The notes beneath the pieces were generated by a model. That model did not search any database, was not told where the DNA came from, and saw nothing but the letters and a program-made list of their open reading frames with translations. Shown here one piece after another: positions 4,780 to 43,948 of a stretch of 64,000 nt of DNA; the first letter of the stretch is position 1; each line of letters opens with the position of its first letter. The translations under genes were made by a program, and so were the position numbers. The stretch is from a virus: the IMG/VR virus record IMGVR_UViG_3300045988_092303. The stretch is one strand, 5' to 3'.

Positions 4780-4857
4780 ATTTTCCCTTCCTGGTCTGCC
4801 ATCATCAGCACCGGGAGACCGTCCCGCGGTGGACGCCCTGACGGGCGTTTCGGCTTG

Positions 4858-5460
4858 TTAGTCGCAGATATACGACCATGCATTTACTTTACTAGTCCCG
4901 TATCTTTTCAAATATGAATCGACACGCTTTGCAAATGCTTTCCGGACTTCATAAAGTCCGGCAATGATTATTTCAATTTCTTCTTTTCCGCATTTTTTCA
5001 AGTCCCGGCAGTTGCTCCAATATCCCGGTTCATATTCCGGATTCTGTGAAATCCTGCACACGCTATAATTTTTTAATCGTGATCCGTTTTCCTGCCCGTA
5101 ATAATGGAGTGATGTATAAACTTCATACTCTCCATTAAGAGCCTTTTTAAGTTTTTCAATCTGGCTGTTGATCTCTTCCAGATTTTTTTCTTTGAAGTAG
5201 CTTTCTGAAGTTCTTGCATGTTTAACCATGCTTTCAGCGGCTGCCATTTCCTCATCCGTTGCGCTGGCATACATTCCGGCACCATAGCAAAAATCTTTTT
5301 TTATTGATGGCTTTTCAAAATCAATGATCGAGCCATCCGGCAGCTCCACAACATATGCAAGTTTCTTCCTTGCATAGTCTTGCATGTGTGGATCATCTGC
5401 CCATACTTCCTTTTTAATAATGTCCATATAGATTTCTTTCAATTCCTTTTGATTTTTCAT
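4858..5460 (-). CDS. Hypothetical 200-aa protein, first gene of the leftward early operon
   Basis: ORF track; SD GGAGGAGG upstream; operator-containing promoter upstream. Confidence 0.65.
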   Translation of the reverse strand: MKNQKELKEIYMDIIKKEVWADDPHMQDYARKKLAYVVELPDGSIIDFEKPSIKKDFCYGAGMYASATDEEMAAAESMVKHARTSESYFKEKNLEEINSQIEKLKKALNGEYEVYTSLHYYGQENGSRLKNYSVCRISQNPEYEPGYWSNCRDLKKCGKEEIEIIIAGLYEVRKAFAKRVDSYLKRYGTSKVNAWSYICD

Positions 5461-5507: not shown

Positions 5508-5536
5508 ATTATATAACTAAAAAAAGTTATTGTCAA
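5508..5536 (-). promoter_or_regulatory. Leftward sigma70-type promoter with operator O1 (ATAACT-N6-AGTTAT, 5513-5530) filling the spacer
   Basis: On the minus strand: TTGACA, 17 nt, TATAAT. Confidence 0.6.
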
Positions 5537-5544
5537 TATAAAAT

Positions 5545-5597
5545 GCAACTTTTTTTAGTTATTTTTAATTGACTTTTTCGGATAAAAATATTATCAT
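5545..5597 (+). promoter_or_regulatory. Half-degenerate operator O2 (5545-5562) plus rightward promoter of the HTH gene
   Basis: gcAACT-T6-AGTTAT; TTGACT (5569), 17 nt, TATCAT (5592). Confidence 0.5.
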
Positions 5598-5622
5598 CTA
5601 TACATAAGGAGGAAATGCAAAA

Positions 5623-5868
5623 ATGATTCGTTTCAAATTTGACGTTGCCGGAGCACTGAAAACCGCAGGAATGACAGCATACAAGGCACAAAAAACAGGT
5701 ATTATATCACAGGATACATGGAGAAAAATAAAGGAAAATAACGCAAATATAAGTATGAAATCATTGAATAATATATGCGCCGTTCTGAATATGCAGCCGG
5801 AGCACTTAATATATTATGAAAAGGATGCGGCAGAGGAAAAAGAAATAAAAGAAAAACTTGAATTATAG
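5623..5868 (+). CDS. XRE/Cro-type helix-turn-helix regulator (81 aa)
   Basis: ORF track; HTH-like ISMKSLNNICAVLNMQPEHLI; flanked by repeated palindromic operators. Confidence 0.7.
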   Translation: MIRFKFDVAGALKTAGMTAYKAQKTGIISQDTWRKIKENNANISMKSLNNICAVLNMQPEHLIYYEKDAAEEKEIKEKLEL

Positions 5869-5870
5869 TA

Positions 5871-5899
5871 TTGACAATATAACTAAAATAAGTTATTAT
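5871..5899 (+). promoter_or_regulatory. Rightward promoter with operator O3 (ATAACT-N6-AGTTAT, 5879-5896) in the spacer
   Basis: TTGACA (5871), 17 nt, TATTAT (5894); nested palindrome GACAATAT..ATATTGTC. Confidence 0.6.
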
Positions 5900-5946
5900 A
5901 ATATTGTCGAAAGGCAATAGGCAAAAGCCGGAAAGGAAGGTAAAAG

Positions 5947-6117
5947 ATGCAAGACATGAACGAAAACGAGATGAAACAAGTAGCACTTGAGAAGTTCGCA
6001 GCAATCCAGAGAATTAAAAAGTACGGACAAGAAGAACTTGAGTATCAAGAAAAACTTGTCCGGGCAGAGCTTCAAAATCTGGGAATCAGTACAGAAGATC
6101 TTGAGCTGAGCAAGTAA
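5947..6117 (+). CDS. Hypothetical 56-aa coiled protein
   Basis: Own translation (MQDMNENEMKQVALEKF...); SD GGAAGG; below track cutoff. Confidence 0.5.
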   Translation: MQDMNENEMKQVALEKFAAIQRIKKYGQEELEYQEKLVRAELQNLGISTEDLELSK

Positions 6118-6162
6118 CACCACCGGGGCGGGCAACCGCCCCACATGAAAGGAGAAGGAAAC

Positions 6163-6342
6163 ATGAGAAAAAATATAAACCAGATCACAGCTGACAAGCT
6201 GGATAAAATGGAGCTATCAGAAAGGGCTAGAAATATCATAGCACAGACGGATATAAACGTCATGGAAGAGTGTTTCGGAGGACTGGAGACAGCCGAAGAA
6301 GTAGAAACATATATCCGGGAAGAATACCCGGAAGAGGAATAA
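6163..6342 (+). CDS. Hypothetical acidic protein
   Basis: ORF track; ATG at 6163 follows AAAGGAGAAGG. Confidence 0.55.
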   Translation: MRKNINQITADKLDKMELSERARNIIAQTDINVMEECFGGLETAEEVETYIREEYPEEE

Positions 6343-6366
6343 AAAGCAAAGAGAAGGAGAAGGAAA

Positions 6367-6678
6367 ATGGCAAACTGGAAATTGAACTTTGAAAAATTAG
6401 AAAATGCATTTAAAGAAGCGAGAAAAAACGGTTATGAGCCGGTTTATAGGATATGCGAGGGAATAACACAGTATTCTGTTAGTGTAGATTCAGAAGCAAC
6501 CGGGAAAAGCGTATACAGCCAGAATACAGGCGACTGGTCGGAAATCGTGGACTTCTGCGCTACGCATTGCAACCCGGGTTATGATCTGATTTCTGGACTC
6601 GGATGCACTGATGACGAACTGACAGAAGCAACTATGAATTATATTCATAGTCTTGGCAAAAAATGTAAATACGAATAA
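6367..6678 (+). CDS. Hypothetical protein
   Basis: ORF track; SD GAAGGAGAAGG. Confidence 0.6.
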   Translation: MANWKLNFEKLENAFKEARKNGYEPVYRICEGITQYSVSVDSEATGKSVYSQNTGDWSEIVDFCATHCNPGYDLISGLGCTDDELTEATMNYIHSLGKKCKYE

Positions 6679-6684
6679 TAAAAA

Positions 6685-6709
6685 AGCAGCGGTTTCTAGC
6701 TGCTTTTTT
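6685..6709 (+). terminator. Intrinsic terminator
   Basis: AGCAGC / GCTGCT stem followed by T6. Confidence 0.85.
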
Positions 6710-6946
6710 AGTGAAATAATGAATTTTCAACTCAACGTTTCCAGCAGGGCAGAAACGACACACAGCAACCCCATGCGCTGCTGATAGGCTCCTGCATGAT
6801 CTGGCAACCATGCAGGAAAGAAAGTACCCAAATTATAAATAATTCGGAATAACTTCACCGATTAAAAAATATCACATTTTTTGATTTTTGTCAACTTCTT
6901 AAGCCGTCCAGAAATGGGCGGTTTTTCTATGCCAGGATGATAATAG

Positions 6947-7093
6947 TTATATATAAGAATATTATATAAACATGCTATATAACAATTTATATGAATATTT
7001 ATATAAAAATTTATATATACATTTATATAAAAAAGATATATAATAATTTATATAAGTTGCTTATATAAGAAATCTATATAAATATTTATATGC
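6947..7093. repeat. Array of about 12 phased TTATATAA-like repeats spaced about 11-12 bp
   Basis: Read directly: TATATAAG, TATATAAA, TATATAAC, TATATGAA and similar, ending at the SD of the Arc-like gene. Confidence 0.8.
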
Positions 7094-7109
7094 TATGGAG
7101 GGCGAAAAG

Positions 7110-7355
7110 ATGGCAAATACAGCAGATTACACAAGAAGAGCTATTGACAAATACCGGGCGAAATTCGACATTATACAGATCAAGGCACCGAAGGGAACAA
7201 AGGAACGTATAACAACGTTGAGCGGTCAGAGCATGGCGGCTTTCTGTTTGCAATGCGTTCTTGATCGTCTGGACGAGCTGGAAAGATCAGAAACGGCACC
7301 GGAACATGAACAACCAGCAAATACACCAACGAATAGCAAAGCAGACCAGCGGTAA
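7110..7355 (+). CDS. Arc/MetJ-type ribbon-helix-helix DNA-binding protein
   Basis: ORF track; pattern YTRRAIDKYRAKFDIIQIKAPKGTKERI..SMAAFCLQCVLDRL; ATG at 7110 follows GGAGGG. Confidence 0.55.
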   Translation: MANTADYTRRAIDKYRAKFDIIQIKAPKGTKERITTLSGQSMAAFCLQCVLDRLDELERSETAPEHEQPANTPTNSKADQR

Positions 7356-7381
7356 AAATTCCGGTTTAGGTCTGCTTTTTG
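7341..7381 (+). terminator. Intrinsic terminator overlapping the gene end
   Basis: GCAGACC / GGTCTGC stem followed by T5. Confidence 0.6.
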
Positions 7382-7410
7382 TGTGCAAAAAACCGGCAGT
7401 CCTCGCGCGA

Positions 7411-7527
7411 ATAATATAAACCTTTTATACAGTCTATAAGTATATATAATATATAATACGTCTATAGATCTATGGGTCTTCTGAGGTAAAAGTAGTATAT
7501 ATATTTATATATAGGGCAGTATATAAG
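7411..7527. repeat. Second TATA/TCTATA-rich repeat block
   Basis: TCTATAAGTATATATAATATATAATACGTCTATAGATCTATGGG ... GTATATATATTTATATATAGGGCAGTATATAAG. Confidence 0.7.
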
Positions 7528-7550
7528 ACCGGAAGATAAATAAAATAGTA

Positions 7551-7579
7551 TTGACAAATTGAAAGATTATGGATATTAT
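7551..7579 (+). promoter_or_regulatory. Sigma70-type promoter of leader L1 and terS
   Basis: TTGACA, 17 nt, TATTAT. Confidence 0.65.
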
Positions 7580-7585
7580 TATAAC

Positions 7586-7746
7586 TAAATTAAGCCGAGG
7601 CGCGCAGGTTCTCCCGGAGTCCGTAGAGGGATAAAAGAGCCGATCAACGCGAGAGGAAGCAAGAGCAAGGACGGACAGAAACACAAGCAAAGTGAAGCAC
7701 GCTCGTAGATCAGACTTTAACAGGTCTTTTCTACGGGCGTTTTTTA
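7586..7746 (+). ncRNA. Leader RNA L1 (about 160 nt) ending in an intrinsic terminator; homolog of L2 at 36705-36855
   Basis: No ORF. Blocks AGCAAGGACGG, GAAGCACGCTC and GGGCGTTTTTT are identical in L2. Terminator stem 7700-7709 / 7730-7739 followed by T7. Confidence 0.6.
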
Positions 7747-7778
7747 TTTCCCGGAAATCACAGAAGGAGGTGCAGAGC

Positions 7779-8447
7779 ATGGAAAAAGTAGAGGATTGCA
7801 AAGCGGATCCGGAAATATTTGAAAATGACATTGACATGTATTTGCAGATCTTCTGCGAAAACCAGAAGCCGCCCATCGAGGATCTGACGAAAGCAAGTCA
7901 AAGTGTTTGGAATGCAGCGCTAATGTATGTACATAGACATGTATTTAAGAATCGGGAATATTTTAGAAGCACTGAAAATATACAGGCCAATAATAAAGCC
8001 CCCATCAGTAATTATTATATATATAACTATAATCTAGTAAATGATGTATGTGATTATTATATATATCTATGTATGCAATATGAGAAAGAAATAAGTATAT
8101 TAGGATTTAGTAATTTAACAGGTATTCCAGATAGCACAGTTTACGACTGGGGATATAATCCACAGAGACAACTAAGCCGTGTAGGCTCGGATATTTGCAA
8201 AAAGTTGCAAAAATACAACGAGGAAAGTCTGGAAAATAAACTTGCATCAGGCAAGGCGAACCCAGTGGGAGTTATCGCAATTCTCAACCGTCGTCACGGC
8301 TGGGCGAGTCCATACACGGCAGATAGCAACCGCCAGAGGGCGCAGGCATTAACAGCAGATCAGTTGCCGCAATTGGGACAGAACAACAAAGGACTACCAG
8401 ACAAAACGCAAGATATTGTGGATAGCGGAGACGAAGCCACGATATAA
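7779..8447 (+). CDS. terS: Terminase small subunit
   Basis: ORF track; ATG at 7779 after GAAGGAGG; pattern GFSNLTGIPDSTVYDW...NPVGVIAILNRRHGW typical of TerS. Confidence 0.65.
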   Translation: MEKVEDCKADPEIFENDIDMYLQIFCENQKPPIEDLTKASQSVWNAALMYVHRHVFKNREYFRSTENIQANNKAPISNYYIYNYNLVNDVCDYYIYLCMQYEKEISILGFSNLTGIPDSTVYDWGYNPQRQLSRVGSDICKKLQKYNEESLENKLASGKANPVGVIAILNRRHGWASPYTADSNRQRAQALTADQLPQLGQNNKGLPDKTQDIVDSGDEATI

Positions 8448-8600
8448 ACGTAAAGAAAAGGCACGATATTTTTTTACATTGTCAAAACATGTGAGAAATT
8501 GTGGAAAATGACGAACAGAACCGGGAAAGCCGGAGAGAATAACCGGGGGAGGGGGTCTGGCAGATCAGCGAAAACCGCCCTACTAAGTCCCCCAAATTTC

Positions 8601-8932: not shown

Positions 8933-9505
8933 ATGAAAGTAGGATATGTCAGAGTCAGTACAGTTGAGCAGAATGAGGCAAGACAGATAGAAGGACTGCA
9001 AAAGTACGGGATTGATAAATGGTACATTGAGAAAGTTTCTGGCAAAAATACAAATCGGGCGAAACTACAGGAAATGATTTCGACACTCCAGTCTGGAGAC
9101 ACGGTTTATATCCATGATTTTTCTAGGCTTGCCAGATCGACCAGTGATCTTCTGAAAATGGTTGAAGAATTGAATAGTCGTGGTATCCACCTCGTCAGCA
9201 ACAAAGAAAACATTGACACATCAACACCTACTGGAAAACTGATGCTTACTATGATTGGCGCGATAAATGAATTTGAGAGAACAAACATGCTGGAGCGTCA
9301 GAAAGAGGGAATAGCAATTGCCAAGCGTGAGAACAAATACAAAAACTGCGGCAGGAAGAAAAAAGAGCTTGATGGTGAGTATGAATCCTTGATTCAGAGT
9401 TATGTGGACGGAGAAATTAGCAAAGTGCAGTTGGCGGTAATGATGAATGTATCAAGGCCAACATTGAACAGGATTTTGAAAGATTATGGGGGAAAAGAAG
9501 AATGA
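8933..9505 (+). CDS. Small serine recombinase (resolvase/invertase family, C-terminal HTH)
   Basis: ORF track; YVRVSTVEQN catalytic-Ser motif; 190 aa. Confidence 0.9.
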   Translation: MKVGYVRVSTVEQNEARQIEGLQKYGIDKWYIEKVSGKNTNRAKLQEMISTLQSGDTVYIHDFSRLARSTSDLLKMVEELNSRGIHLVSNKENIDTSTPTGKLMLTMIGAINEFERTNMLERQKEGIAIAKRENKYKNCGRKKKELDGEYESLIQSYVDGEISKVQLAVMMNVSRPTLNRILKDYGGKEE

Positions 9506-10515: not shown

Positions 10516-10587
10516 TGGGCTATCGCCAAGCGGTTAAGGCACAGGACTTTGACTCCTGTATCCCCGGTTCGAGTCCGGGTAGCCTAG
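10516..10587 (+). tRNA. tRNA-Gln (anticodon TTG)
   Basis: Manual cloverleaf: TGGGCTA acceptor, anticodon loop CTTTGAC, T arm CCCGG-TTCGAGT-CCGGG. Same architecture as E. coli tRNA-Gln. Confidence 0.85.
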
Positions 10588-11668: not shown

Positions 11669-11752
11669 GCCAACGTGCCCGAGCGGTAAAGGGAGCGGTC
11701 TTGAAAATCGTCTGTCAGAAATGGCTTGTGGGTTCAAATCCTACCGTTGGCG
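11669..11752 (+). tRNA. tRNA-Ser (anticodon TGA), class II
   Basis: GCCAACG/CGTTGGC acceptor, D arm CCC-GAGCGGTAAA-GGG, loop CTTGAAA, variable stem GTCA/TGGC, T arm GTGGG-TTCAAAT-CCTAC. Confidence 0.8.
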
Positions 11753-11805
11753 TTCCCATTGGGTATCACGAAATCCTACCAAAATTTCAAAATGGAGGTG
11801 CAACC

Positions 11806-12258
11806 ATGATAAGTGAATTTGTTGAATATGTTAAACAGGCATGGAAGAATAAGCCAAATGTCAGCAGTCCATTGAATGCAGACCGTCTGAATCATATGGA
11901 AGATGGAATTTGGAACAATTATGGAAAGATAAAAGAAATCATTGCAGAACTCGTTTCTTTGAATGTTGATATTGAATCTATTATAAATCCAAACGGTGCA
12001 GAAAACGGTACAGAACGTTGGTGCAGATATGTGGTTTTAGGAGATTTGGTACTTGCTTTTTGCCACCTTGAATTACTTTCGCAGGCAGCAGCATACACAA
12101 CTGGTGTAGGCGTTCCGGCTCCCAAGAATGGATCACTTAATGTTAAGGATGAAACGGCAACATACTCTTTTCAAATAAATCAAAACGGCGTTTTTCAAAA
12201 TTCTGTCGTGCTTCCCGCTGGAAAATACAATGTGTTTGCTGCTTATTTAAAAGCTTAA
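11806..12258 (+). CDS. Orphan tail-fibre/receptor-binding-tip-like protein A
   Basis: ORF track; ATG at 11806 after GGAGGTG. N-terminus FVEYVKQAWKNKPNVSSPLNADRLNHMEDGI is shared with the next gene; C-terminus is unrelated. Confidence 0.5.
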   Translation: MISEFVEYVKQAWKNKPNVSSPLNADRLNHMEDGIWNNYGKIKEIIAELVSLNVDIESIINPNGAENGTERWCRYVVLGDLVLAFCHLELLSQAAAYTTGVGVPAPKNGSLNVKDETATYSFQINQNGVFQNSVVLPAGKYNVFAAYLKA

Positions 12259-12274
12259 AAATGGAGATGCAAAA

Positions 12275-12733
12275 ATGTTAGAAAATTTTGTGAAATATAT
12301 TAAACAAGAATGGAAAAATAAACCAGATACATCTACCCCTCTGTCAGCTGATAGGCTGAATCATATTGAGGGGGGGGTAAAAACTAATTCGGATGCAATT
12401 AACGAAATTATTACTGGCGTTGCGAATTACAGTTCTGATGAAACGGAATGCGGTACATGGAAAGGAAAACCGCTGTACAGAAGAATCTTAGAACTTACTG
12501 ACGCAACAGACAGGAAAAATTACGATTTTAAAAAAATTATTGGGTCTGTAACAGTTGTGAAAACAGTTGGTCATACGGCTCAACCGAATGGAAACTTTGT
12601 TCCGCTCCCATATTATTTGAATGATAGAGACTATGCCGCATATTATATCAGTTCGAGCCTACTTTTTACTTATCGCTGCGGAGGATCGTATGGTGCCGGA
12701 GATGTGGAGTTGGAAGTATACTACACGAAATAG
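12275..12733 (+). CDS. Orphan tail-fibre/receptor-binding-tip-like protein B
   Basis: ORF track; N-terminus FVKYIKQEWKNKPDTSTPLSADRLNHIEGGV; TWKGKPLYRRI motif seen in phage RBP head domains. Confidence 0.5.
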   Translation: MLENFVKYIKQEWKNKPDTSTPLSADRLNHIEGGVKTNSDAINEIITGVANYSSDETECGTWKGKPLYRRILELTDATDRKNYDFKKIIGSVTVVKTVGHTAQPNGNFVPLPYYLNDRDYAAYYISSSLLFTYRCGGSYGAGDVELEVYYTK

Positions 12734-14884: not shown

Positions 14885-14986
14885 AACAATTACCGACTGA
14901 ATATTGATTCAGCCGCTAACCTAGAAAAATTATAGGCAGAGGTCTTACAAGCACCTTTGCTTTTTGAAAGTGGAGGTGCTTTTCTA

Positions 14987-16765
14987 TTGGCATCTGAAAA
15001 TCTGAAACAAACAATCCAAGGATACGAAAATTATATACAGTCGCATGGCATAGATGAGACGGTCATTGAGGCATACGTAGAAGCCTGTTCCGTGGCTATA
15101 AATAATGAAAAGGATACAGAATACGGCTTGCAACTCACAAAGCGGTCTAAGGAGCTTATAGAGCGTTACTGCATGGATCAGACCGGTGGGACGATCTGGG
15201 ATCTGGAAAAATATGCACAGGACAGCAGCAGTTCTTTCCAGCTAATCAACCAATATTATGAGATTTTAAAGCTTGAAACTTTTTGGAGCTTTGAAAGTTT
15301 CATGTACTACATGGAGAAGAAGAGACCATACGGGAAGCGTTTTTATTATCCCAGAAGGAAATCACTTGGAATTGTAATAAAAGATCTGGAAGATCTGGAA
15401 AATAGAGTTATTAAATTCTATGGGCTTTCAATGCCGTCTCGTGTCGGTAAATCTACAATTTGTATATTTTTTCTTGCGTGGATAGCTTTAAGGCGTCCAA
15501 ATAGCCATTCAGCTATGGGCGGACATTCTGGAATACTGGCAAAGGGATTCTATAAAGAGTTAATGAATCTTTTCACCACAGAAGAATATACCTTTGCGGA
15601 GCTGTTTGCATTTTGGCATCCAGAATATGCAAAAAGAGCATTACCCACAGACAAAAGTGCGGATGAATTTACGATTACGCTTGGCGACCCGGATAGATTT
15701 GCGACCGTTACTTGTCGTGGTATTGATGGTACTTGGACTGGTGCAGTTGACGTATCAAAAGACGGGTATCTGTATGTGGATGACCTTGTAAGGGATCGTG
15801 AACATTCATTAAGTCCTATGCGAATGGAAAACACATTTCAAGAATACCTAAACAAGATGGTAGACCGTAAAAATGATGGTGCTAGGGAGCTTATGGTCGG
15901 TACTCTTTGGAATGTTCTTGACCCTCTTGAAAGATTAAGAAAACAGTATGATGGAAACCCGGAATATAGATTTAGACGTATACCGGCGCTTAACGATAAC
16001 GATGAAAGTAATTTTGACTATGAAATAAATGGATTTTCAACAGCATATTACCGTGATATGCGTGAGCGCCTTGATAAAGCGGAATGGGAAGCTAAATTTA
16101 TGCAACGACCGTTTGTACGAGAAGGACTTCTTTTCCCAACGGATGAGCTGCGGTACTTCAACGGCATTCTTCCGGATGGTGATTTCAGAAGAATCGGTGT
16201 TACGGACATTGCGTGGGGCGGAGGGGACAGTTTGTCAATGCCTATCGGAGCTGAATATGAAAACGGAGATGTCTACATTTACGACTGGGTGTTTAACGGA
16301 GGTCCGAAAGAAGTTACGGTTCCGCTAGTTGTCGGAAGAATCGTAGGAAATGAGATTAGGCAGACGCGTTTTGAAGGAAATGTCGGTGGCGATCTTTATT
16401 GTCAGTATGTTGACGAAAAATTACAAGACATTGGCTATAAATGTTCTTGCACAAGCAAAAAAGCTCCAAATAAAGTTGAAAAGTTAGCAAAAATCATTGC
16501 TTATTCTGGAGACGTAAAGAGAAAATTTATTTTTTTGGAAAGCAAAAGGCCTACGCAGGAAGAACTGCAACGAGATGCAGATCTTGGAATTGTAAGATAC
16601 CGAAGGAATGATGAGTACCAGAAAGCAATGGACGAGCTGACTATGTTTGTAAGCATTGGTGGCAATGATCATGACGACGCGGCAGATGCATTAACACAGC
16701 TTGAAATGTTTATTGAAAATCCGCTTGCGATCAGAAAAGCAACAATTATGTCAAGCCCGATTTAA
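14987..16765 (+). CDS. terL: Terminase large subunit
   Basis: ORF track (14957-16765). TTG at 14987 lies 8 nt after GGAGGTG. Walker-A-like PSRVGKST; C-terminal nuclease-like DDAADAL. Confidence 0.85.
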   Translation: MASENLKQTIQGYENYIQSHGIDETVIEAYVEACSVAINNEKDTEYGLQLTKRSKELIERYCMDQTGGTIWDLEKYAQDSSSSFQLINQYYEILKLETFWSFESFMYYMEKKRPYGKRFYYPRRKSLGIVIKDLEDLENRVIKFYGLSMPSRVGKSTICIFFLAWIALRRPNSHSAMGGHSGILAKGFYKELMNLFTTEEYTFAELFAFWHPEYAKRALPTDKSADEFTITLGDPDRFATVTCRGIDGTWTGAVDVSKDGYLYVDDLVRDREHSLSPMRMENTFQEYLNKMVDRKNDGARELMVGTLWNVLDPLERLRKQYDGNPEYRFRRIPALNDNDESNFDYEINGFSTAYYRDMRERLDKAEWEAKFMQRPFVREGLLFPTDELRYFNGILPDGDFRRIGVTDIAWGGGDSLSMPIGAEYENGDVYIYDWVFNGGPKEVTVPLVVGRIVGNEIRQTRFEGNVGGDLYCQYVDEKLQDIGYKCSCTSKKAPNKVEKLAKIIAYSGDVKRKFIFLESKRPTQEELQRDADLGIVRYRRNDEYQKAMDELTMFVSIGGNDHDDAADALTQLEMFIENPLAIRKATIMSSPI

Positions 16766-16781: not shown

Positions 16782-17198
16782 ATGGAAACAAAAAAATACC
16801 TTGGCCAGATCAAAAGATATGACTGTATGATTGCAAATAAAATCGAGGAGATCAAGAATCTCCGTGCAACACTTTATGGAATGCCGTCACTCTCCGGCGG
16901 AGAACGTGTGCAGACATCCGGCACAAAGGACATTGTTGGCAGCGGAGCACCTAAGATTGCTGATATGGAGTCAGAAGTGCGTACTCTCTCACGGAAAAGA
17001 GAAGAGATTGTTCGACAAATTGAGAAAATCCCGGATACGGACATGTATGATGTACTGGCAAAGCGGTTCGTGCTGGACAAAGATTTTAAGGTAATCAGCG
17101 TAGAAATCAAAAAATCAAAGCGTCAGACGTTTTTCATTTACGATAATGCTATTGATATGTTTGAAAAAATGTTTGGATACCTGTACATGGGAGACTAA
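16782..17198 (+). CDS. Sigma-70 region-4-like / DUF1492-ArpU-RinA-like putative late transcription regulator
   Basis: ORF track; ATG at 16782 after GGAGGAAAG; pattern KKYLGQIKRYDCMI..IEEIKNLRA...YDVLAKRF. Confidence 0.45.
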   Translation: METKKYLGQIKRYDCMIANKIEEIKNLRATLYGMPSLSGGERVQTSGTKDIVGSGAPKIADMESEVRTLSRKREEIVRQIEKIPDTDMYDVLAKRFVLDKDFKVISVEIKKSKRQTFFIYDNAIDMFEKMFGYLYMGD

Positions 17199-17361: not shown

Positions 17362-17559
17362 ATGGAATACAAGCCAAAAACAATATATTGTCCACGGTGC
17401 GGCAGGAAAGTTGCTACATGGGACGGACGTTCTTCTATGCCGGTGATCGGCAGGTGTAAGAAATGTAATAAACGAGTTGTCTATTACGTTGACAACGATG
17501 AAACAGAAATTAAGAACATGCCGGGAAGAAATTGCTCTTCCGGAGTCACGTATTTGTAG
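17362..17559 (+). CDS. Com-like zinc-ribbon protein (CxxC-x19-CxxC)
   Basis: ORF track; CPRCGRKV...GRCKKCNKRV; ATG at 17362 after GAGGA. Confidence 0.5.
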   Translation: MEYKPKTIYCPRCGRKVATWDGRSSMPVIGRCKKCNKRVVYYVDNDETEIKNMPGRNCSSGVTYL

Positions 17560-17568
17560 AGGTGTGAG

Positions 17569-19113
17569 ATGGCAAATCCGGGAAGAAAAATAATATGGAC
17601 TGATGAACCAGAAATTACATATGAAAATGTTATTGATGTTCTCCGGGATGCAATTCTTGTCCATACTGCGAACGCACAAAGAATCCAGTTCCTTTTAGAT
17701 TATGACGGTGGAGATCAGCCGATCATACGAAAAAAGCCAAAAACATACAGACCGGACATAGACTGCCGGTGCAATGATAATGTTGCGCATCAGGTTTCTA
17801 ACTTTTGGACTGGATTTGGTTGGGGAAATGCTATAACGCTTGTCCAGAATGGAGACGGGAAAGATCAATACGTATCGGATGGCATTTCTGAGCTTAACAA
17901 GCAATACGATCTGGTGAAAATCCGGGCGAAAACACAGGAGCTTGGACGCTTTGTTGAAATCGGTGCATTGTGTTACATCTATGTTGATACAAATATGAAT
18001 TGGATGGAAGGAAAAAGCTATTTTACGCTTGATATCCTAGATCCCAGAACCTCTTTTGTAATCAGATCAAATTATTATCCTGATAAACGTGTAATGCTCG
18101 GGGTCACTTATCGTTGCGATAAAAGAGGAATTAAGCATTATACCTGCTTCACACCGGATGCTCGTTATGAAATCTCAGAATGGGAACATGCAGAACGAAG
18201 CGGAGAGTTAAATCCGCTTGGTATGATACCGATTGTTGAATACATCAGATCGTATGATCGCATGGGTGTGTGGGAGCATCAGATTTCGGAGATGGACAAT
18301 CTGAATTTGCTCATTTCAGATTTCTCAAATGATGTTGAGCAGAACACGCAGGCTGTATGGCACGCAAACGATGTTGATTTTCCTGTTAAGCAGGAAGTCA
18401 TCGAAGAAAAAGACGGAACAAAGAAGTCTGTGGAGGAAGTTGTAAAACCAAAGTCTGGAGAATGGCTTAGTACATTCACTTCCCCTGACGGAAAGACTCC
18501 GTTTGTTAAGGCTCTGTCGATTGATTATGACTACGACGGAATGCTGAATGCAATACAATATCGCAGGAATAAAATTCTGGAAAAATGCAACGTTCCCCTC
18601 ACAAGTGACAATGCATCAAACATCACAGGAGTGGCAGCGAGCAATGCTTCCGGATGGGATCATGCGGAAGCGGCAGCATCAAAGCAGCAGATGATCACAG
18701 AAAGTTGCAAACTGGAAGAAGTTGAAGTTGTTCTTGCGGCAATAGCAAACAATCCAAACCTTCCAGCTGACAGCCCGTTAAAGAAAATCACTCCGGCAGA
18801 CATTGAAGTTAATGTGAAACGTCAAAAACTGTATGAGCTGTCAACGAAAGTAAACAGTGCTGTAACACTTATAAAAGCTGGATTTGATGGAGGAAAGGTA
18901 TTAAATGCCATTCCGATTTTTGACGATCCTAATGAAGTGTGGGATGCCAGCAAAGAAACGGTGAAAAAAATCCAAAACAGCGGAATCTCTCAAGACGCAA
19001 TCACCGGAGATGATATAGAACCGGAAAAACCAAATTCTGACAGGATAATGCAGGATTTATCAGATCAGGTTACAAACAGTCCACTGATTGATAAAAGCAG
19101 AGCTGAGAAATAA
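17569..19113 (+). CDS. Portal protein (SPP1 gp6-like)
   Basis: ORF track; size and position after terL, followed by a Mu-F-like gene. Confidence 0.85.
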   Translation: MANPGRKIIWTDEPEITYENVIDVLRDAILVHTANAQRIQFLLDYDGGDQPIIRKKPKTYRPDIDCRCNDNVAHQVSNFWTGFGWGNAITLVQNGDGKDQYVSDGISELNKQYDLVKIRAKTQELGRFVEIGALCYIYVDTNMNWMEGKSYFTLDILDPRTSFVIRSNYYPDKRVMLGVTYRCDKRGIKHYTCFTPDARYEISEWEHAERSGELNPLGMIPIVEYIRSYDRMGVWEHQISEMDNLNLLISDFSNDVEQNTQAVWHANDVDFPVKQEVIEEKDGTKKSVEEVVKPKSGEWLSTFTSPDGKTPFVKALSIDYDYDGMLNAIQYRRNKILEKCNVPLTSDNASNITGVAASNASGWDHAEAAASKQQMITESCKLEEVEVVLAAIANNPNLPADSPLKKITPADIEVNVKRQKLYELSTKVNSAVTLIKAGFDGGKVLNAIPIFDDPNEVWDASKETVKKIQNSGISQDAITGDDIEPEKPNSDRIMQDLSDQVTNSPLIDKSRAEK

Positions 19114-24922: not shown

Positions 24923-24950
24923 GGGGCGGTCTACGGACTGCCCCCTTTCC
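24923..24950 (+). terminator. Hairpin terminator
   Basis: GGGGCGGTC / GACTGCCCC stem followed by CTTTCC. Confidence 0.55.
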
Positions 24951-35013: not shown

Positions 35014-35042
35014 GTTGACTAAATGTCATGACAATTATATAA
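35014..35042 (+). promoter_or_regulatory. Consensus-like sigma70 promoter
   Basis: TTGACT, 17 nt, TATAAT. Confidence 0.7.
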
Positions 35043-35074
35043 TACAATTAAATCAAATGAAAGGAGCGGATGAA

Positions 35075-35254
35075 ATGTCACCTAGAAATGGTAGACCACC
35101 ATCAGAAAACCCAAAATCTCATAGAGAAAGTTTTCGATTATCTGATGATGACATGATGAAGTTAAATTATTGCATGGAAAAAACCGGAATGAAGAAAACG
35201 GAAGTCATCAGAAAAGGCATTGATTTGGTCTATAATAAACTAAAAAAGGAGTAA
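35075..35254 (+). CDS. CopG-type ribbon-helix-helix protein
   Basis: ORF track frame; ATG at 35075 after AAAGGAG; GRPPSENPKSHRESFRLSDDDMMKLNYCMEKTGMKKTEVIRKGI. Confidence 0.6.
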   Translation: MSPRNGRPPSENPKSHRESFRLSDDDMMKLNYCMEKTGMKKTEVIRKGIDLVYNKLKKE

Positions 35255-35369
35255 CCTACGTGTACTTGGCGGTATCAGGGTTACTCCAATGGGACACATC
35301 CACAAGGGATATGCACTAATACTGTAGCATACCTCTTGTGGAAAATCAATATTTCACAGGAGGTTTTTT

Positions 35370-35534
35370 ATGGTAACAGAACAGTACAAAGCATTATTAT
35401 CTCAACTTACAGAGGAATGCGATAACGCATTATATCTTCGTAGCGCAGTTATTTTCATGGCAACACTGAATGACAAGGAACTGACGGAATCTGATGGTGT
35501 TCTCAAAATTACGAAGAAAGGCGGTGCTCATTGA
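35370..35534 (+). CDS. Tiny ORF a (54 aa)
   Basis: Own translation; SD AGGAGG; ends ..KKGGAH. Its AAAGGCGGTG tail is the SD of the next ORF. Confidence 0.45.
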   Translation: MVTEQYKALLSQLTEECDNALYLRSAVIFMATLNDKELTESDGVLKITKKGGAH

Positions 35535-35686
35535 TGGAAGAGAACAGAAAGAAAATTCACGAGATGGTTGACTGCATGGACACTGACGGGAGGTTAGCAT
35601 ACTGGGAGACATTCATGAGACGCTGGTTAGAATATTGGGGGCATGGATGCTTGGACAACATGGGAAAGAAAGGCGGTGTGCAGTAA
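35534..35686 (+). CDS. Tiny ORF b (50 aa), paralog of ORF c
   Basis: Own translation MEENRKKIHEMVDCMDTDGRLAYWETFMRRWLEYWG..; TGATG overlap. Confidence 0.5.
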   Translation: MEENRKKIHEMVDCMDTDGRLAYWETFMRRWLEYWGHGCLDNMGKKGGVQ

Positions 35687-35808
35687 TGGAAGAAAACAGA
35701 AAGAAATTGCATGAAATGGTTGACTGTATGAACACCGAGGAAATGCTTGCCTACTGGGAGACTTTTATGAGGCTCTGGCTGGAAGAGTGGGGAGGTGACT
35801 GTTTATGA
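35686..35808 (+). CDS. Tiny ORF c (40 aa), paralog of ORF b
   Basis: Own translation MEENRKKLHEMVDCMNTEEMLAYWETFMRLWLEEWG..; TAATG overlap. Confidence 0.5.
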   Translation: MEENRKKLHEMVDCMNTEEMLAYWETFMRLWLEEWGGDCL

Positions 35809-35939
35809 GTTACAAAGAAGAGATTGTTAAGATGCTGGAATGTATCAGCAATGAGCGGATTTTGAAACTCATTTACGGATTTGTCCGTAGCGGTTACAGA
35901 GAGGACAGAGCAATGAAAGGCGGTGCCAGAAATGACTGA
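35805..35939 (+). CDS. Tiny ORF d (44 aa), same family as the ORF at 44983-45093
   Basis: Own translation MSYKEEIVKMLECISNERILKLIYGFVRSGY..; ATGA overlap. Confidence 0.5.
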   Translation: MSYKEEIVKMLECISNERILKLIYGFVRSGYREDRAMKGGARND

Positions 35940-36681
35940 TATTCAGATTTTTAATAACCCGGATTTTGGAGACATTAGAACCGTTGAGGTTGACGGAAAA
36001 CCATATTTTGTTGGAAGAGACATTGCAAAAGCATTAGGATATAGTGACCCGCACAAAGCAGTATCCCGGCACTGTAAGGGTGGGATGAAATATCCCATAG
36101 GGGTGCAAACTGGTACGGGAGCTGATGGAACACCGATAATACAGGATATAGATATGCTTATCATTTCAGAAGGTGATGTTTACAGACTCATTATAAAGTC
36201 GCAGTTGCCGGCAGCAGAAAAGTTTGAAGGATGGGTAATGGATGAAGTCCTCCCGGCAATTAGGAAGAACGGCTCTTACACCATGCCGATCAGCACCAAC
36301 GACAAGATCATGCTTCTTGCGCAGGGACATATGGAGTTGCAACAGGAGGTTGACAGCATTAAGAAGGACATGGAGAGTCTGAAAATGGATTTACCGATTC
36401 TTCCAGTAGAGGAAGACCGGATAACATCCGCTGTGAAGCGCAAGGGACTGGCTGTGATGGGCGGTAAGACCTCTAATGTGTACCGGGATAAATCCATCCG
36501 CCGGAAGGTGTATCAGGGCATCTATGCGAATTTGAAGTACAACTTCCAGATCAAGACCTATCGGGCATTGAAACGGAGTCAGGTGGACAAGGCTATTGAG
36601 ATCATCAATAACTACCAGCCGCCGTATGTTCTGGCAGAACAGATAGACTCTGCAAATGCACAGCAGACCTTGATATTCTAG
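35932..36681 (+). CDS. Antirepressor-like protein (Bro-N domain + ORF6C-like C-terminal domain)
   Basis: ORF track; IQIFNNPDFGDIRTVEVDGKPYFVGRDIAKALGY. Confidence 0.8.
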   Translation: MTDIQIFNNPDFGDIRTVEVDGKPYFVGRDIAKALGYSDPHKAVSRHCKGGMKYPIGVQTGTGADGTPIIQDIDMLIISEGDVYRLIIKSQLPAAEKFEGWVMDEVLPAIRKNGSYTMPISTNDKIMLLAQGHMELQQEVDSIKKDMESLKMDLPILPVEEDRITSAVKRKGLAVMGGKTSNVYRDKSIRRKVYQGIYANLKYNFQIKTYRALKRSQVDKAIEIINNYQPPYVLAEQIDSANAQQTLIF

Positions 36682-36698
36682 GGAAAAACTGCTATAAT
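36670..36698 (+). promoter_or_regulatory. Sigma70-type promoter of leader L2
   Basis: TTGATA, 17 nt, TATAAT; overlaps the end of the previous gene. Confidence 0.65.
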
Positions 36699-36704
36699 AA
36701 AATC

Positions 36705-36855
36705 AAATTCAGCCGAATCCATCAGCTCCGCCCGGCTTGTCGTTGAGGGGAGAACGGGGCGAAAAGGATAGGACGAATCGAGCAAGGACGGCAAACATTT
36801 TGAGAAGCACGCTCACTGGACATGGTAGAGATACTGTGTCTGGTGGGCGTTTTTT
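36705..36855 (+). ncRNA. Leader RNA L2 (about 150 nt) ending in an intrinsic terminator; homolog of L1
   Basis: Shares blocks AGCAAGGACGG (36781), GAAGCACGCTC (36804) and GGGCGTTTTTT (36845) with L1. Terminator stem 36810-36822 / 36837-36849. Confidence 0.6.
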
Positions 36856-36886: not shown

Positions 36887-37609
36887 ATGGAAGAAACGAA
36901 GATTTTTAAGAGCGAAGAGTTTGGAGAAGTTAGAACTGCTGTGATCGACGGTGAAGCATGGTTCGTTGGCAAGGACGTTGCGGATATTCTTGGGTACCAG
37001 AATGGAAGCAGGGACATCAATGCACACGTAGACGATGAAGACAGAAGAATTATCAAAAGTACCGAAACGGTATCTTTGGATATTCCAAGTAGAGGAATGC
37101 TTTTAATCAATGAGTCAGGTCTCTACAGCCTTATTCTTTCAAGTAATATGCCGAACGCAAAGAAATTCAAAAAGTGGGTGACATCAGAGGTACTGCCGTC
37201 CATCAGAAAACATGGCATCTATGCCACTGACAATGTGATCGACAACATCCTGAATAACCCGGACTTTGGCATTGAGCTTCTTACAAAGCTGAAAGAAGAA
37301 CGTGCAGCAAGGGTAGAAGCTGAGAAAAAGAATGCGATCCTTACCCATGTGAATAAAACATATACCATGACCGAGATTGCGAAGGAACTGAATCTGAAAT
37401 CTGCCGTGGAGCTGAACAAAATCCTGGCGGATAAGAAGATCCAGTACAAGGTGAATGGAACATGGGTACTTTATTCCGATTATAGCAATCTTGGGTACGA
37501 AGATATCAAGCAGGAAGTCCTTGACAACGGAAGGGTGATTTATCACCGGAAGATCACACAGATGGGACGGGCATTTATCCTTGGACTTTTTGAGGACAAG
37601 GCGTCATAA
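36887..37609 (+). CDS. Antirepressor (Bro-N + KilAC domains)
   Basis: ORF track; ATG at 36887 after GGGAGGAAAGGG; KIFKSEEFGEVRTAVIDGEAWFVGKDVADILGY; KilAC-like C-terminus. Confidence 0.8.
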   Translation: MEETKIFKSEEFGEVRTAVIDGEAWFVGKDVADILGYQNGSRDINAHVDDEDRRIIKSTETVSLDIPSRGMLLINESGLYSLILSSNMPNAKKFKKWVTSEVLPSIRKHGIYATDNVIDNILNNPDFGIELLTKLKEERAARVEAEKKNAILTHVNKTYTMTEIAKELNLKSAVELNKILADKKIQYKVNGTWVLYSDYSNLGYEDIKQEVLDNGRVIYHRKITQMGRAFILGLFEDKAS

Positions 37610-37662: not shown

Positions 37663-37721
37663 CAACTGGATAGGGTAGCTCCCGAAGAGCGGAAATCCTA
37701 CACCGCCTGCCAGTTGTTTTT
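37663..37721 (+). terminator. Second long hairpin terminator
   Basis: CAACTGG (37663) / CCAGTTG (37710) followed by T5. Its interior holds a 19-mer that is the exact reverse complement of 854-872. Confidence 0.55.
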
Positions 37722-37758
37722 CATAAATGTAGGAGTCTATTTGTAGGAGGTAGAGTAT

Positions 37759-38493
37759 ATGGAAAGAAAATCAAGAAAATTAGCAACAGAAAAGCAAATT
37801 TTATATGCAAATGCAATTGCAAAATCCCTTGAAATTGATTTGTGTTTTAAAAATGGTGATCCATATTATACGGTTTCAAAATTTATTAAAGAAAATGAAG
37901 AATACTATAAAGAAAATATCAAAATGGCAACACCAAGACAAATTGATTATGCAAATGCTATTTCTGACGAACTTAAAATCGAAAAGAAATTTGATGAAAC
38001 TGCTCTTGCAAAAGATGTTGCAAAATTTATAAGCGATCATGGAGAGGAATTTGCCCTGAATTGTGCAAAAAAGAAATATTTGGAAGAAAAAGTTGGATAT
38101 ATAAATAAAAATGGAGAATTTATTAGTTTTCCATTTGAATGTTGCGAATTTATGAGCGAAAACTTATATGGAAAACATGGAGTATATGCATTTTTAGATG
38201 GTTCTGAAAATGTAGTCTATATAGGAAAATCCATAAATCTCGCAGATAGAATAACAGGTTCATACCATGAAAGACAAGATGGAAGAATCGAAAAAATCAT
38301 GTATTACACAGATGAAAGTATGGCAAATGCTCATGTTTTGGAACTTATTTTGATAAACAAATATAAACCGATTTTTAATACGGATTGCAAATCTGATGAT
38401 GATTTTACTTTATTTCCATGCGATATAAGCATTGAAAAAGATTTTAAAGTTCTTCCGTATTTTTCAAATAAATGTAAGGAGGTAAATGCATGA
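37759..38493 (+). CDS. GIY-YIG domain protein with two N-terminal ATxxQIxYANAI repeats
   Basis: ORF track; GVYAFLDGSENVVYIGKSINLADRI; repeats ATEKQILYANAIAKSLEID and ATPRQIDYANAISDELKIE. Confidence 0.65.
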   Translation: MERKSRKLATEKQILYANAIAKSLEIDLCFKNGDPYYTVSKFIKENEEYYKENIKMATPRQIDYANAISDELKIEKKFDETALAKDVAKFISDHGEEFALNCAKKKYLEEKVGYINKNGEFISFPFECCEFMSENLYGKHGVYAFLDGSENVVYIGKSINLADRITGSYHERQDGRIEKIMYYTDESMANAHVLELILINKYKPIFNTDCKSDDDFTLFPCDISIEKDFKVLPYFSNKCKEVNA

Positions 38494-39500
38494 ATTACAA
38501 AGAGCTTTTATACAACAAAGATGCTGCATTAACCTTCTTTCCTAGACTGGCCGTAATTTTTAATAAATACGATGACATTGAGTCAGAGAAAGTTTTTCGT
38601 GAGACAGGGGAAAAAAGAAAATCTGATAAAAGTGGTCTTTCAAAAGCAATTGTTATTAACCAGCTTAATTACTGGTTAGGTATTAACCAGAAGAGTGGTA
38701 ACAATTTTAGAGATGGTTATTACTGGACGTATAATACATATCAAATGTGGGCGGATAATGACTTCGTTTTTTGGTCTGCTGATACCGTAAAACGGGTATT
38801 TACTTCCCTAGAAAAAATCGGAGTTGTTGTTTCTACGTCAGCATATAACAAACTTAGACTTGATAAAACAAAGTGGTACAGGATTGATTATGATAGATTG
38901 CAGGAAGTTATTGACACCGTAGAAGAAGACGAAAAAACACGAGCAGTGCAATGTGCACCGTCGAGGAGGGCAATGTGCACCGTCGAGGAGGGCAATGTGC
39001 ACCATAGAGGAGGGCAACTTGCACCGAGCAATACCATAGACTACACAGAGACTTCTTCAGAGACTACATCAGAGAGTATGAGAGTATGCTCTTTTTCAGC
39101 GGAAAAAGAGGTCTCTCCCACATCTGAAGGTGGTACGTTATCTCCTACGGTCACAAAAGCCATTGACGAGGCAATGACGGAAGAAGGAGAATCTCCAGAT
39201 AGCTTCTGTAGAGCCGAATTGAAGGATATAGCTGAATACTTTGTAAGCGAATATGCCAGAACGCAAGGAAAGCCGCATAAGCCACTCACAAGACCGGCTA
39301 TTAGCAATATCGTATACAATTACTTGCATCAAGACGAGGACGAATACGGAATCATGGATGATGTGTGGACGCTAGACCAGTACATTCCGTTAATTGATAT
39401 GTATATGCAGACGAACTACCGGGAGGGCATAGAAAAGAGCCTGTCCCACTTTATGTCCGGTTCTATCCGCCGGAATTTAAAAGCAAAATTGATAGAGTAA
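38490..39500 (+). CDS. Putative replication initiator (winged-helix N-terminal domain) containing iterons
   Basis: ORF track; AIVINQLNYWLG...YWTYNTYQMWADN..FWSADTVKRVFTSLEKIGVV...KTKWYRIDYD; internal 22-bp DNA repeats. Confidence 0.5.
   Translation: MNYKELLYNKDAALTFFPRLAVIFNKYDDIESEKVFRETGEKRKSDKSGLSKAIVINQLNYWLGINQKSGNNFRDGYYWTYNTYQMWADNDFVFWSADTVKRVFTSLEKIGVVVSTSAYNKLRLDKTKWYRIDYDRLQEVIDTVEEDEKTRAVQCAPSRRAMCTVEEGNVHHRGGQLAPSNTIDYTETSSETTSESMRVCSFSAEKEVSPTSEGGTLSPTVTKAIDEAMTEEGESPDSFCRAELKDIAEYFVSEYARTQGKPHKPLTRPAISNIVYNYLHQDEDEYGIMDDVWTLDQYIPLIDMYMQTNYREGIEKSLSHFMSGSIRRNLKAKLIE
38948..39035. repeat. 22-bp direct repeats x3.5 (GCAATGTGCACCGTCGAGGAGG): iteron-like ori candidate
   Basis: R1 38948-38969 equals R2 38970-38991; R3 has 2 mismatches; R4 is partial. 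The 22-nt period is not a multiple of 3, so this is not a peptide repeat. Confidence 0.7.
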
Positions 39501-43186: not shown

Positions 43187-43948
43187 ATGGGAATGATTTT
43201 AATGCCGGGCGGCGGTGGTGGAATTGATCTTGACCTTGTTACTGCGCTTGCAGGTGATGTACTTAGCGGAAAAGTAATTGTTGGGGCGGATGGGGAACCA
43301 ATAACAGGAACGCTTGCTTTAACAGGAGATGCAGGTACGGGAGATGTACTGTCCGGGAAGACGTTCTACAATGCCGATGCAAAAACAAAGCGTTCTGGAA
43401 CAATGGCGAACAGAGGCGCGTTGAACTGGTCTGGAAGTAATACAACAAAATCTGTGGATGCCGGATATTATAGCGGAGGTACACTAGATAGTAGACCATC
43501 GTATAATTCTGGACGTACTCAAGGACAGAATGATGTAAAAAATAGCCCGAATTCATACGGGCTATATACAAAGGCGCAGTATGATGCGAATTATAATAAC
43601 GGCTTAAACGCAAAAGTAAACAATTTATCAGTCAAACAAGAACAATTTAATAACAAGACAACAGATTCGAGCAAGAAAGCCTACTTCAATGTTGCAGCAA
43701 ATACAGGAAAACACTATGTAGTAGTAAGTGTCGTATCGAGAGCAAATACTACGGCGGATACGCTAAAACATTCTCTTGCTGTAACAAATGGATCTATAAG
43801 TCAATTACAACAAATTTTAAGCAACTCAAGTACCTGCGTTACTGTTTGGCACTTAGAAAAAACGAATTCATCTGCCGTTTCTACAATAACTGTTACCGCT
43901 GGAAGATCAGATGCTGATGCATTTATGCTTGTAATTAAATTAACTTAA
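43187..43948 (+). CDS. Tail fibre / receptor-binding protein
   Basis: ORF track; repeated GDVLSGK(V/T)F motif; last gene of the + strand structural operon. Confidence 0.5.
   Translation: MGMILMPGGGGGIDLDLVTALAGDVLSGKVIVGADGEPITGTLALTGDAGTGDVLSGKTFYNADAKTKRSGTMANRGALNWSGSNTTKSVDAGYYSGGTLDSRPSYNSGRTQGQNDVKNSPNSYGLYTKAQYDANYNNGLNAKVNNLSVKQEQFNNKTTDSSKKAYFNVAANTGKHYVVVSVVSRANTTADTLKHSLAVTNGSISQLQQILSNSSTCVTVWHLEKTNSSAVSTITVTAGRSDADAFMLVIKLT

Follow-up and report, generated by a model that had tools for sequence, protein, structure and literature searches.

The window analysed here, the whole 64,000-nt stretch of IMG/VR virus record IMGVR_UViG_3300045988_092303, contains two modules of the same build (7551-7745 and 36670-36855), each consisting of a near-consensus sigma70 promoter, a conserved leader of ~85 nt and a strong predicted terminator (Table 1). 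The first module precedes a terS-like gene, with the large terminase subunit, the portal protein and head genes further on, and the second precedes an antirepressor-like gene and a replication module.

Table 1. Features of the two modules, the genes behind them and the helix variants found across the family
Feature	Position	Strand	Description
Copy 1 promoter	7551..7579	+	-35 TTGACA 7551-7556, 17-nt spacer, -10 TATTAT 7574-7579
Copy 1 pseudoknotted leader domain	7601..7676	+	Hand structural alignment A4, 54-sequence count, RNAalifold (P3)
Copy 1 P2	7601-7604 with 7648-7651		
Copy 1 P3	7607-7612 with 7636-7641		
Copy 1 P4	7613-7615 with 7628-7630		
Copy 1 pseudoknot	7619-7623 with 7672-7676		GUCCG with CGGAC
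Copy 1 A-rich bulge	7631-7635		
Copy 1 conserved single strand	7652-7671		AGAGG...GAGCAAGGA; GAGC within at 7663-7666
Copy 1 linker	7677..7699	+	Across types 6-25 nt long and variable in sequence; CA before terminator kept
Copy 1 intrinsic terminator	7700..7745	+	CGCUC 7700-7704 invariant; upper stem variable; GGGCG 7735-7739; U6 7740-7745
terS-like gene, first behind copy 1	7779..8447	+	222 aa; weak GP3_package match
terL	14957-16765		Behind copy 1
Portal	17569-19113		Behind copy 1, as are head genes
Copy 2 promoter	36670..36698	+	TTGATA, 17-nt spacer, TATAAT; TG before -10
Copy 2 pseudoknotted leader domain	36717..36794	+	Hand structural alignment, 54-sequence count
Copy 2 P2	36717-36720 with 36766-36769		
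Copy 2 P3	36725-36730 with 36755-36760		
Copy 2 P4	36731-36733 with 36747-36749		
Copy 2 pseudoknot	36737-36742 with 36789-36794		UUGUCG with CGGCAA
Copy 2 GAGC	36780-36783		
Copy 2 intrinsic terminator	36810..36855	+	CGCUC 36810-36814; GGGCG 36845-36849; U6 36850-36855
Antirepressor-like gene, first behind copy 2	36887..37609	+	Bro-N + KilAC, 240 aa
int-alpA RNA	37663-37729	+	Rfam RF02996; follows the copy 2 antirepressor gene
DnaD-like replication initiator	38490-39500		Behind copy 2, with more replication-module genes
P2 variants			CGCG/CGCG, AUCC/GGAU, GUUCCG/CGGGAC, AUCAC/GUGAU, CCCCG/CGGGG, GGCGUUG/CAACGCU, AUCUUU/AAAGAU
P3 variants			GGUUCU/AGAGCC, GCUCCG/CGGGGC, AGUGCU/AGCAUU, GAUUGC/GCGAUC, GCUUUG/CAAGGC, GCUUUA/UAAGGC
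P4 variants			CCC/GGG, CCCC/GGGG, CCA/UGG, UCC/GGA, CCG/CGG, CCGC/GUGG
Pseudoknot variants			P4 loop with tail after GGA: UGACCG/CGGUCA, UAACCG/CGGUUA, GUCCG/CGGAC, UUGCCG/CGGCAA

Most of what the initial annotation had described at copy 1 holds. The proposed promoter matches the sigma70 consensus at 11 of 12 positions, and transcription is predicted to start near 7586, where a -10-like hexamer, TAAATT (7586-7591), occupies the predicted +1 to +6. Between the promoter and the terminator hairpin lies a leader of ~120 nt. The terminator arms (CGCTCGTAGA at 7700-7709 and TCTACGGGCG at 7730-7739) are exactly as given, and folding predicts a hairpin of -24.3 kcal/mol, but the T7 claimed to follow them is a T6 succeeded by ATTT. 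The distance of 33 nt to the next gene is likewise correct, the T run ending at 7745 and the ATG lying at 7779. The leader had also been described as free of ORFs; mechanical ORFs do overlap it (7505-7876 on the minus strand, and one that starts at GTG 7692 and shares the frame of the downstream gene), but neither is supported. Copy 1 forms a separate unit, since a terminator at 7338-7378 closes the operon upstream of it.

A homologous second leader had been placed at 36705-36855, and we find it there, beginning at about 36705 and equipped with its own promoter and terminator (predicted hairpin -28.9 kcal/mol by folding). The shared blocks GCCGA, (G)AGCAAGGACGG, GAAGCACGCTC and GGGCGTTTTTT are exact in both copies, the start-to-start spacing from block 2 to block 3 is 41 nt in each (7694 to 7735 and 36804 to 36845), and the upper terminator stems of the two copies differ by compensatory changes, all in agreement with the earlier description. 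A family profile run against the 64-kb window finds two places only (E = 5.5e-19 and 1.1e-14; the next best match has E = 3.9), and the signature CGCTC..GRGCGTTTT occurs within the window only in the two leaders, where 0.02 occurrences are expected; these values place the shared leaders far beyond chance.

The genes behind the two copies are of different kinds. The name terS, as used in the initial annotation, can be kept only with reservation, because the match of the gene itself to Pfam GP3_package stays below threshold (E = 1.1e-5; 26 bits against a cut-off of 29.4), although the protein has more than 1400 homologues and most of them carry a precomputed PF16677 match. The gene lies ~7 kb from terL, and the stretch between the two holds a small serine recombinase/invertase, MazG, three tRNA genes and two paralogous tail-fibre-like ORFs (at 8933-9505 and 11701-12733; tRNAs at 10516, 10858 and 11669); such an insertion between terminase subunits is unusual. 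The notion of copy 2 as a late-operon leader has to be given up, since a Bro-N/KilAC antirepressor and a replication module stand behind it, not a late gene. The int-alpA RNA in this operon may act as a second conditional terminator; int-alpA RNAs were also seen in two related loci (L360 598-666 and L436 1143-1208), in L360 directly after the leader terminator with no ORF between. By gene content, copy 1 heads a packaging/structural operon and copy 2 an antirepressor/replication operon, and as the two contexts differ, the element would gate two different operons. The two genes put forward earlier as candidate regulators, 16782-17198 (PHROG 'transcriptional regulator') and 17362-17559 (zinc-ribbon-like), both with uninformative annotations, lie downstream of the copy 1 terminator, inside the gated operon, and nothing ties them to the element. 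No RNA-binding or antiterminator protein was identified among the ORFs examined, and in the 2.3 kb upstream of the leader the relatives compared contain no protein family specific to phages of the pseudoknot type.

Upstream of copy 1, at the place where lambda would have Q, a conserved ORF of 86 aa (7095-7355, +) encodes an RHH-like protein (best PDB match the PutA RHH domain, E = 1.1), and an AT-rich region of TATATA repeats (7400-7545) extends between the terminator at 7338-7378 and the copy 1 promoter. This ORF is a candidate for regulating the late promoter at the level of DNA; another possible role of the region is that of a packaging site. The RHH-like ORF is present in 56 of 63 relatives, irrespective of their leader type, and its equal presence where the pseudoknot is missing counts against a link to the element. 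Elsewhere in the window, a Cro/C1-type HTH gene (5623-5868) has consensus promoters on either side that point in divergent directions (minus strand, 5536-5508; plus strand, 5569-5597 and 5871-5899), which gives 5508-5899 the look of a genetic-switch region; another HTH repressor-like gene is present at 43935-44702 (-). Immediately 3' of the ORF at 4858-5460 (-) is a type II hammerhead ribozyme (4790-4855, -; 59.6 bits), and relatives have hammerheads in the same relative position, ~2.2-2.9 kb upstream of the terS leader (L307 295-364, L263 128-196 and L520 3237-3303, all on the minus strand). The stretch 35015-35939 contains a strong promoter (35015-35043), a 59-aa RHH/MobC-like ORF (35075-35254) and a terminator-like hairpin (35331-35364), after which come several small ORFs in tandem, three of them preceded by GAAAGGCGGTG and two of them paralogues (MEENRKK...).

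The initial annotation spoke of a two-member family. Instead, the element belongs to a large one: gut phage contigs and gut metagenomes yielded over 100 instances with about 95 distinct cores, which fall into 15 or more sequence types. A blastn search of 7400-8500 against GenBank phages gave no match. In IMG/VR, nearly all matches to the first patterns were chance ones, as judged by nhmmer; an aptamer-only DNA pattern yielded 12 true homologues, a second aptamer-only pattern an extra type with a different T tract, and a leader-plus-terminator pattern 70 loci (IMG/VR) and 88 (metagenomes), every true one from the human gut. Several more sequence types came from loci reached via terS homologues, that is, independently of the leader. 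A pattern scan of genome contigs gave no true homologue among the matches listed (Streptomyces chance matches; the pattern was too G+C-friendly), and a look-up of encoding contigs led to human-gut metagenome records only. In these human-gut data the element is seen in phage contexts only. According to a catalogue of 10,006 viral candidate RNAs published in 2023 (PMC10690425), an 86-nt candidate RNA from Lachnospiraceae phages is highly expressed in human faecal small-RNA-seq; this catalogue may contain a prior, unnamed listing of the motif, for example as its 86-nt candidate.

The arrangement around the element is constant. In each homologue, a near-consensus promoter of its own precedes the structure by 12-19 nt; in all instances with enough flank and a callable ORF, the first gene of an operon follows the element after 20-120 nt in the same orientation, and no other promoter occurs between the element and the downstream gene in those with a callable ORF. 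The downstream genes form two groups, one of divergent terS-like proteins (201-222 aa) and one of Rha, Bro-N or ORF6N antirepressor-like proteins or replication initiators, with one GIY-YIG-like exception. Moreover, at least 12 contigs carry two divergent copies, one of each downstream kind (IMGVR_UViG_3300045988_064641, _067221, _058782, _069168, _070442, _034838, _076693, _071387, _087778, _104722, _065977 and _073970), and the paired copies within a genome have the conserved core in common while their helix sequences differ. In sister phages with a terS that is ~58% identical, promoter, leader, terminator and terS follow one another in this order too, but the leader is ~30 nt long and has no pseudoknot. 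Among the sister loci (L282-L333, at about 2350-2500; L334-L340; L316), the leader is either of this short kind or unrelated, as in L334, which has a GCGCCC GGAG...AGA GGGCGC hairpin. It would thus seem that one leader type can replace another here.

The initial annotation had argued for selection on RNA structure. Covariation bears this out, but the selection reaches beyond the terminator to a pseudoknotted domain of ~85 nt that had been missed. The leader folds into three stacked helices, P2, P3 and P4, and a pseudoknot in which the P4 loop pairs with a 3' CGGN tail. In the hand-made structural alignment A4 (43 sequences), 98.4% of cells pair and both sides have changed in 15 of 23 pairs, figures that are favoured by the hand fitting, in which helices were aligned by hand and columns forced with N padding. 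The covariation score of A4 is 0.542 as against 0.148 in shuffles, with none of 500 shuffles reaching 0.542, and sliding the partners by 1-3 columns leaves 33-45% pairing. When 11 further types and variants were added (54 distinct sequences), 98.5% of cells pair and compensatory double changes are found in 17 of 24 pairs; covariation among relatives had been proposed earlier as a check, and the homologues do conserve the fold. Furthermore, RNAalifold on an unguided MAFFT alignment recovered P3, with 6 of 6 pairs compensated. On this comparative evidence, we regard the leader fold as established.

Several unpaired positions are invariant or nearly so: (C/U)AG between P2 and P3, the A-rich bulge 3' of P4, the G after P3, AGG after P2 (in most types), and GAG(C/U)A(A/G)GGA before the pseudoknot strand. 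Some types have an extra covarying hairpin inserted between P2 and P3. In locus L496, the leader variant has an inserted hairpin and a GCGUUAUUUUUUU tract; the same locus contains a 574-nt ROOL RNA (7048-7621, -) flanked by five tRNA genes. A helix P1 between the 5' GCCGA and the CGGC tail was dropped, as it is the P4 loop, and not the 5' end, with which the tail covaries; a short outer helix (GCC/GGC, UCC/GGA, AGCG/CGCU) may form as an optional element. A leader peptide, or a role of AAGGA like that of a Shine-Dalgarno sequence, was also dropped, because start codons and spacing differ between the two copies.

That the element matches no known RNA family, as had been stated, agrees with our scans of Rfam 15. 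At the gathering threshold, the whole window gave no match at either leader; with the two leaders as queries and E <= 10, only chance miRNA and HCV matches far below gathering were returned; and 11 diverse relatives gave no match on the leader at the gathering threshold. We consider it well supported by the comparison of sequences that this is a structured leader RNA family, absent from Rfam, by which a known regulatory layout gains a new RNA.

The terminator itself is under an additional constraint. Across copies, folding predicts hairpins of -16 to -32 kcal/mol followed by U5-U7. The upper stem covaries freely, whereas the foot does not. Its 5' strand is CGCUC in all 48 distinct true instances retrieved without requiring CGCUC, a count read by eye, and its 3' partner is GGGCG in 43 and GAGCG in 5 of the 48, so that the U of the foot stands opposite G or A and is never C, though a C-G pair would be stronger. 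The foot of sister phages that have no pseudoknot takes several forms (GCUCG, GCCUG, GCCCG). Fixed with the pseudoknot and variable without it, the 5' strand is thus under specific constraint where the pseudoknot domain occurs. The sole conserved complement of the foot in the leader is the invariant GAG(C/U), which lies 5 nt before the pseudoknot strand. Pairing of GAGC with GCUC comprises 4 bp, never extends, and shows no covariation, as it cannot covary. No conserved antiterminator or alternative hairpin was found in folds of the leader up to the terminator loop, and GAGC:GCUC is the only candidate for a switching contact at the RNA level.

We suggest, tentatively and at somewhat below an even chance, that the leader is the RNA recognition site of a trans-acting factor, most likely a phage protein, and that it makes the terminator conditional. 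The strong constitutive-type sigma70 promoter would start the RNA, and its first ~90 nt would fold into the pseudoknotted domain. By default, RNA polymerase would presumably stop at the terminator and release an RNA of ~150 nt. A trans-acting factor would recognise the folded leader and suppress the terminator, allowing the operon to be read; this factor would most likely be a phage-encoded protein from the earlier lytic programme, like lambda N at nut. Pairing of GAG(C/U) with the GCUC foot would deprive the terminator of base pairs beside the U tract. Because the copies in one genome share the conserved core and not the helix sequences, one factor could switch both operons together. The lack of a conserved alternative hairpin in the folds fits suppression by a factor better than a classical switch.

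It would be tempting to see in the domain the aptamer of a small-molecule riboswitch, binding a metabolite or signalling nucleotide, in which ligand binding would settle the place of GAGC, either paired with the GCUC foot (ON) or kept within the fold (OFF). Compact aptamers typically have A-rich bulges and an H-type pseudoknot, and the A-rich bulges and pseudoknot of the leader are of this kind; the size of the domain, its covarying helices, its invariant purine-rich junction nucleotides, the intrinsic terminator directly downstream and a 5' terminator strand constrained beyond the needs of pairing all accord with such a device. If it were true, phage replication and packaging would be tied to a physiological signal of the host. 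However, there is no conserved extended antiterminator helix that would exclude the terminator, no Rfam match, and no instance before metabolic or transport genes or outside phages, the element standing at phage operon heads only, and sister phages regulate the same junction without it. The restriction to phages, together with the missing extended alternative helix, favours a phage-specific effector over a metabolite, and we consider a riboswitch unlikely.

The nascent leader might instead act in cis without any factor, binding RNA polymerase so that it resists the adjacent and later terminators, with regulation left to the promoter, as for HK022 put, B. subtilis EAR and Tn916 canT. Two homologous structured copies per genome just after operon promoters recall putL and putR (PMC11658703), the domain and the terminator share no alternative pairing, and the operons behind the copies are long (7.8-34 kb) and contain a few terminator-like sites (for example at 24923 and 34256). 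Yet the conservation of CGCUC at the terminator foot would go unexplained if the RNA did no more than modify polymerase, and this speaks against such a mode of action; it is hard to see what purpose a terminator that is always overridden would serve, placed 6-25 nt behind the RNA and with its foot invariant. In addition, the promoters are near consensus, and around copy 2 we noticed no conserved DNA of operator type. Such a mode of action therefore seems to us quite unlikely.

A mechanism that would give the RNA fold a secondary role is that of lambda Q, in which a DNA-bound factor loads at a sigma-dependent promoter-proximal pause, and the leader RNA would do no more than modulate pausing, stability or folding. 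The layout is common to sister phages with a leader of ~30 nt, and since these share the junction, terminator control does not intrinsically need this RNA, which keeps a Q-type reading alive. The hexamer at +1 to +6 of copy 1 also suits it, as does the recurrence of AAATT before the structure in most types, and the RHH-like gene and the AT-rich repeats lie just upstream of the late promoter. Against it, heavy compensatory covariation and invariant loop and junction nucleotides point to direct selection on a complex fold, copy 2 has neither an RHH gene nor an AT-rich region upstream, and no Q-family domain was found in any tested ORF (no Pfam or PHROG match to a Q-type protein in ORFs 5623-7355 and the other candidates). 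We hold this mechanism to be decidedly unlikely. Very improbable, finally, is a stand-alone trans-acting small RNA, for which the ~150-nt terminated transcript would be the product and the operon position incidental: the element does have its own promoter and terminator, and the catalogue reports high expression of the 86-nt Lachnospiraceae-phage candidate (PMC10690425), which may or may not be this element, but wherever a downstream ORF could be called the element stands on the same strand, 20-120 nt before an operon-first gene with no intervening promoter, and without read-through the terS-like and antirepressor genes would have no evident promoter.

Beyond the favoured reading of a recognition site for a phage protein, one may speculate that the element is an RNA master switch of lytic development in a large group of human-gut phages, probably those of Lachnospiraceae, either as a new riboswitch class that senses a small molecule of host or phage or as the first put-like, polymerase-binding RNA known from Gram-positive phages, whose two diverged copies gate both operons and whose terminator foot is stripped through the pseudoknot-stabilised 4-nt GAGC:GCUC contact. 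We regard this as possible but doubtful. To our knowledge, late-gene timing in temperate gut Firmicutes phages is largely unknown, and lambda-style Q and N proteins are unrecognisable there; the element offers a concrete, widespread and easily mutated RNA handle on this timing. If it is read by a protein, a new antiterminator family would be at hand; if by a small molecule, a metabolite would feed into the development of phages in the gut. In both cases, the element could be used as a compact regulatory part and could mark this group of phages.

How the element relates to known systems depends on which of its traits is compared. By sequence, both copies have the G+C-rich hairpin and U6 of an intrinsic terminator. 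With pseudoknot riboswitches such as preQ1, SAM-II and fluoride, it shares a compact pseudoknot, invariant junction nucleotides and an adjoining intrinsic terminator, and the leader has a conserved domain supported by covariation, as a riboswitch should. It differs from them in matching no Rfam class, in having no conserved alternative helix longer than 4 nt, and in its place at phage operon heads only, where the downstream genes are terS-like, antirepressor-like or replication initiators only and follow no single metabolic or transport theme. HK022 put, B. subtilis EAR, pLS20 conAn2 and Tn916 canT are, like it, structured cis-acting leader RNAs of mobile elements that control terminator read-through (PMC11658703, PMC8191782), and put, too, is present in two divergent copies, each behind a promoter of its own. 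However, sequence and fold are unrelated and the sizes differ, put consisting of two stem-loops and conAn2 and canT of 300-450 nt (PMC11658703, PMC8191782); moreover, these RNAs act on distant terminators and have no conserved adjacent one, whereas here a terminator with an invariant foot is an integral part.

The likeness to lambda PR'-tR' noted in the initial annotation holds for the overall architecture: a strong constitutive-type promoter, a short leader, a strong terminator and a packaging/structural operon, together with a -10-like hexamer at the predicted transcript start. Unlike qut, the element contains a covarying pseudoknotted RNA domain, which qut does not need, and it also heads an antirepressor/replication operon. 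The nut site of lambda consists of boxA and a 15-nt boxB hairpin. No boxA or boxB was noticed by eye in the two leaders and no N-like arginine-rich protein was identified, and in place of such a site stands a three-helix pseudoknot of ~85 nt with an integral terminator 6-25 nt away. Nevertheless, both are cis-acting RNA sites on the nascent transcript of which a genome has two, one heading each of two operons, and in the model that we favour a phage protein would read the site and suppress terminators, as in the lambda N system.
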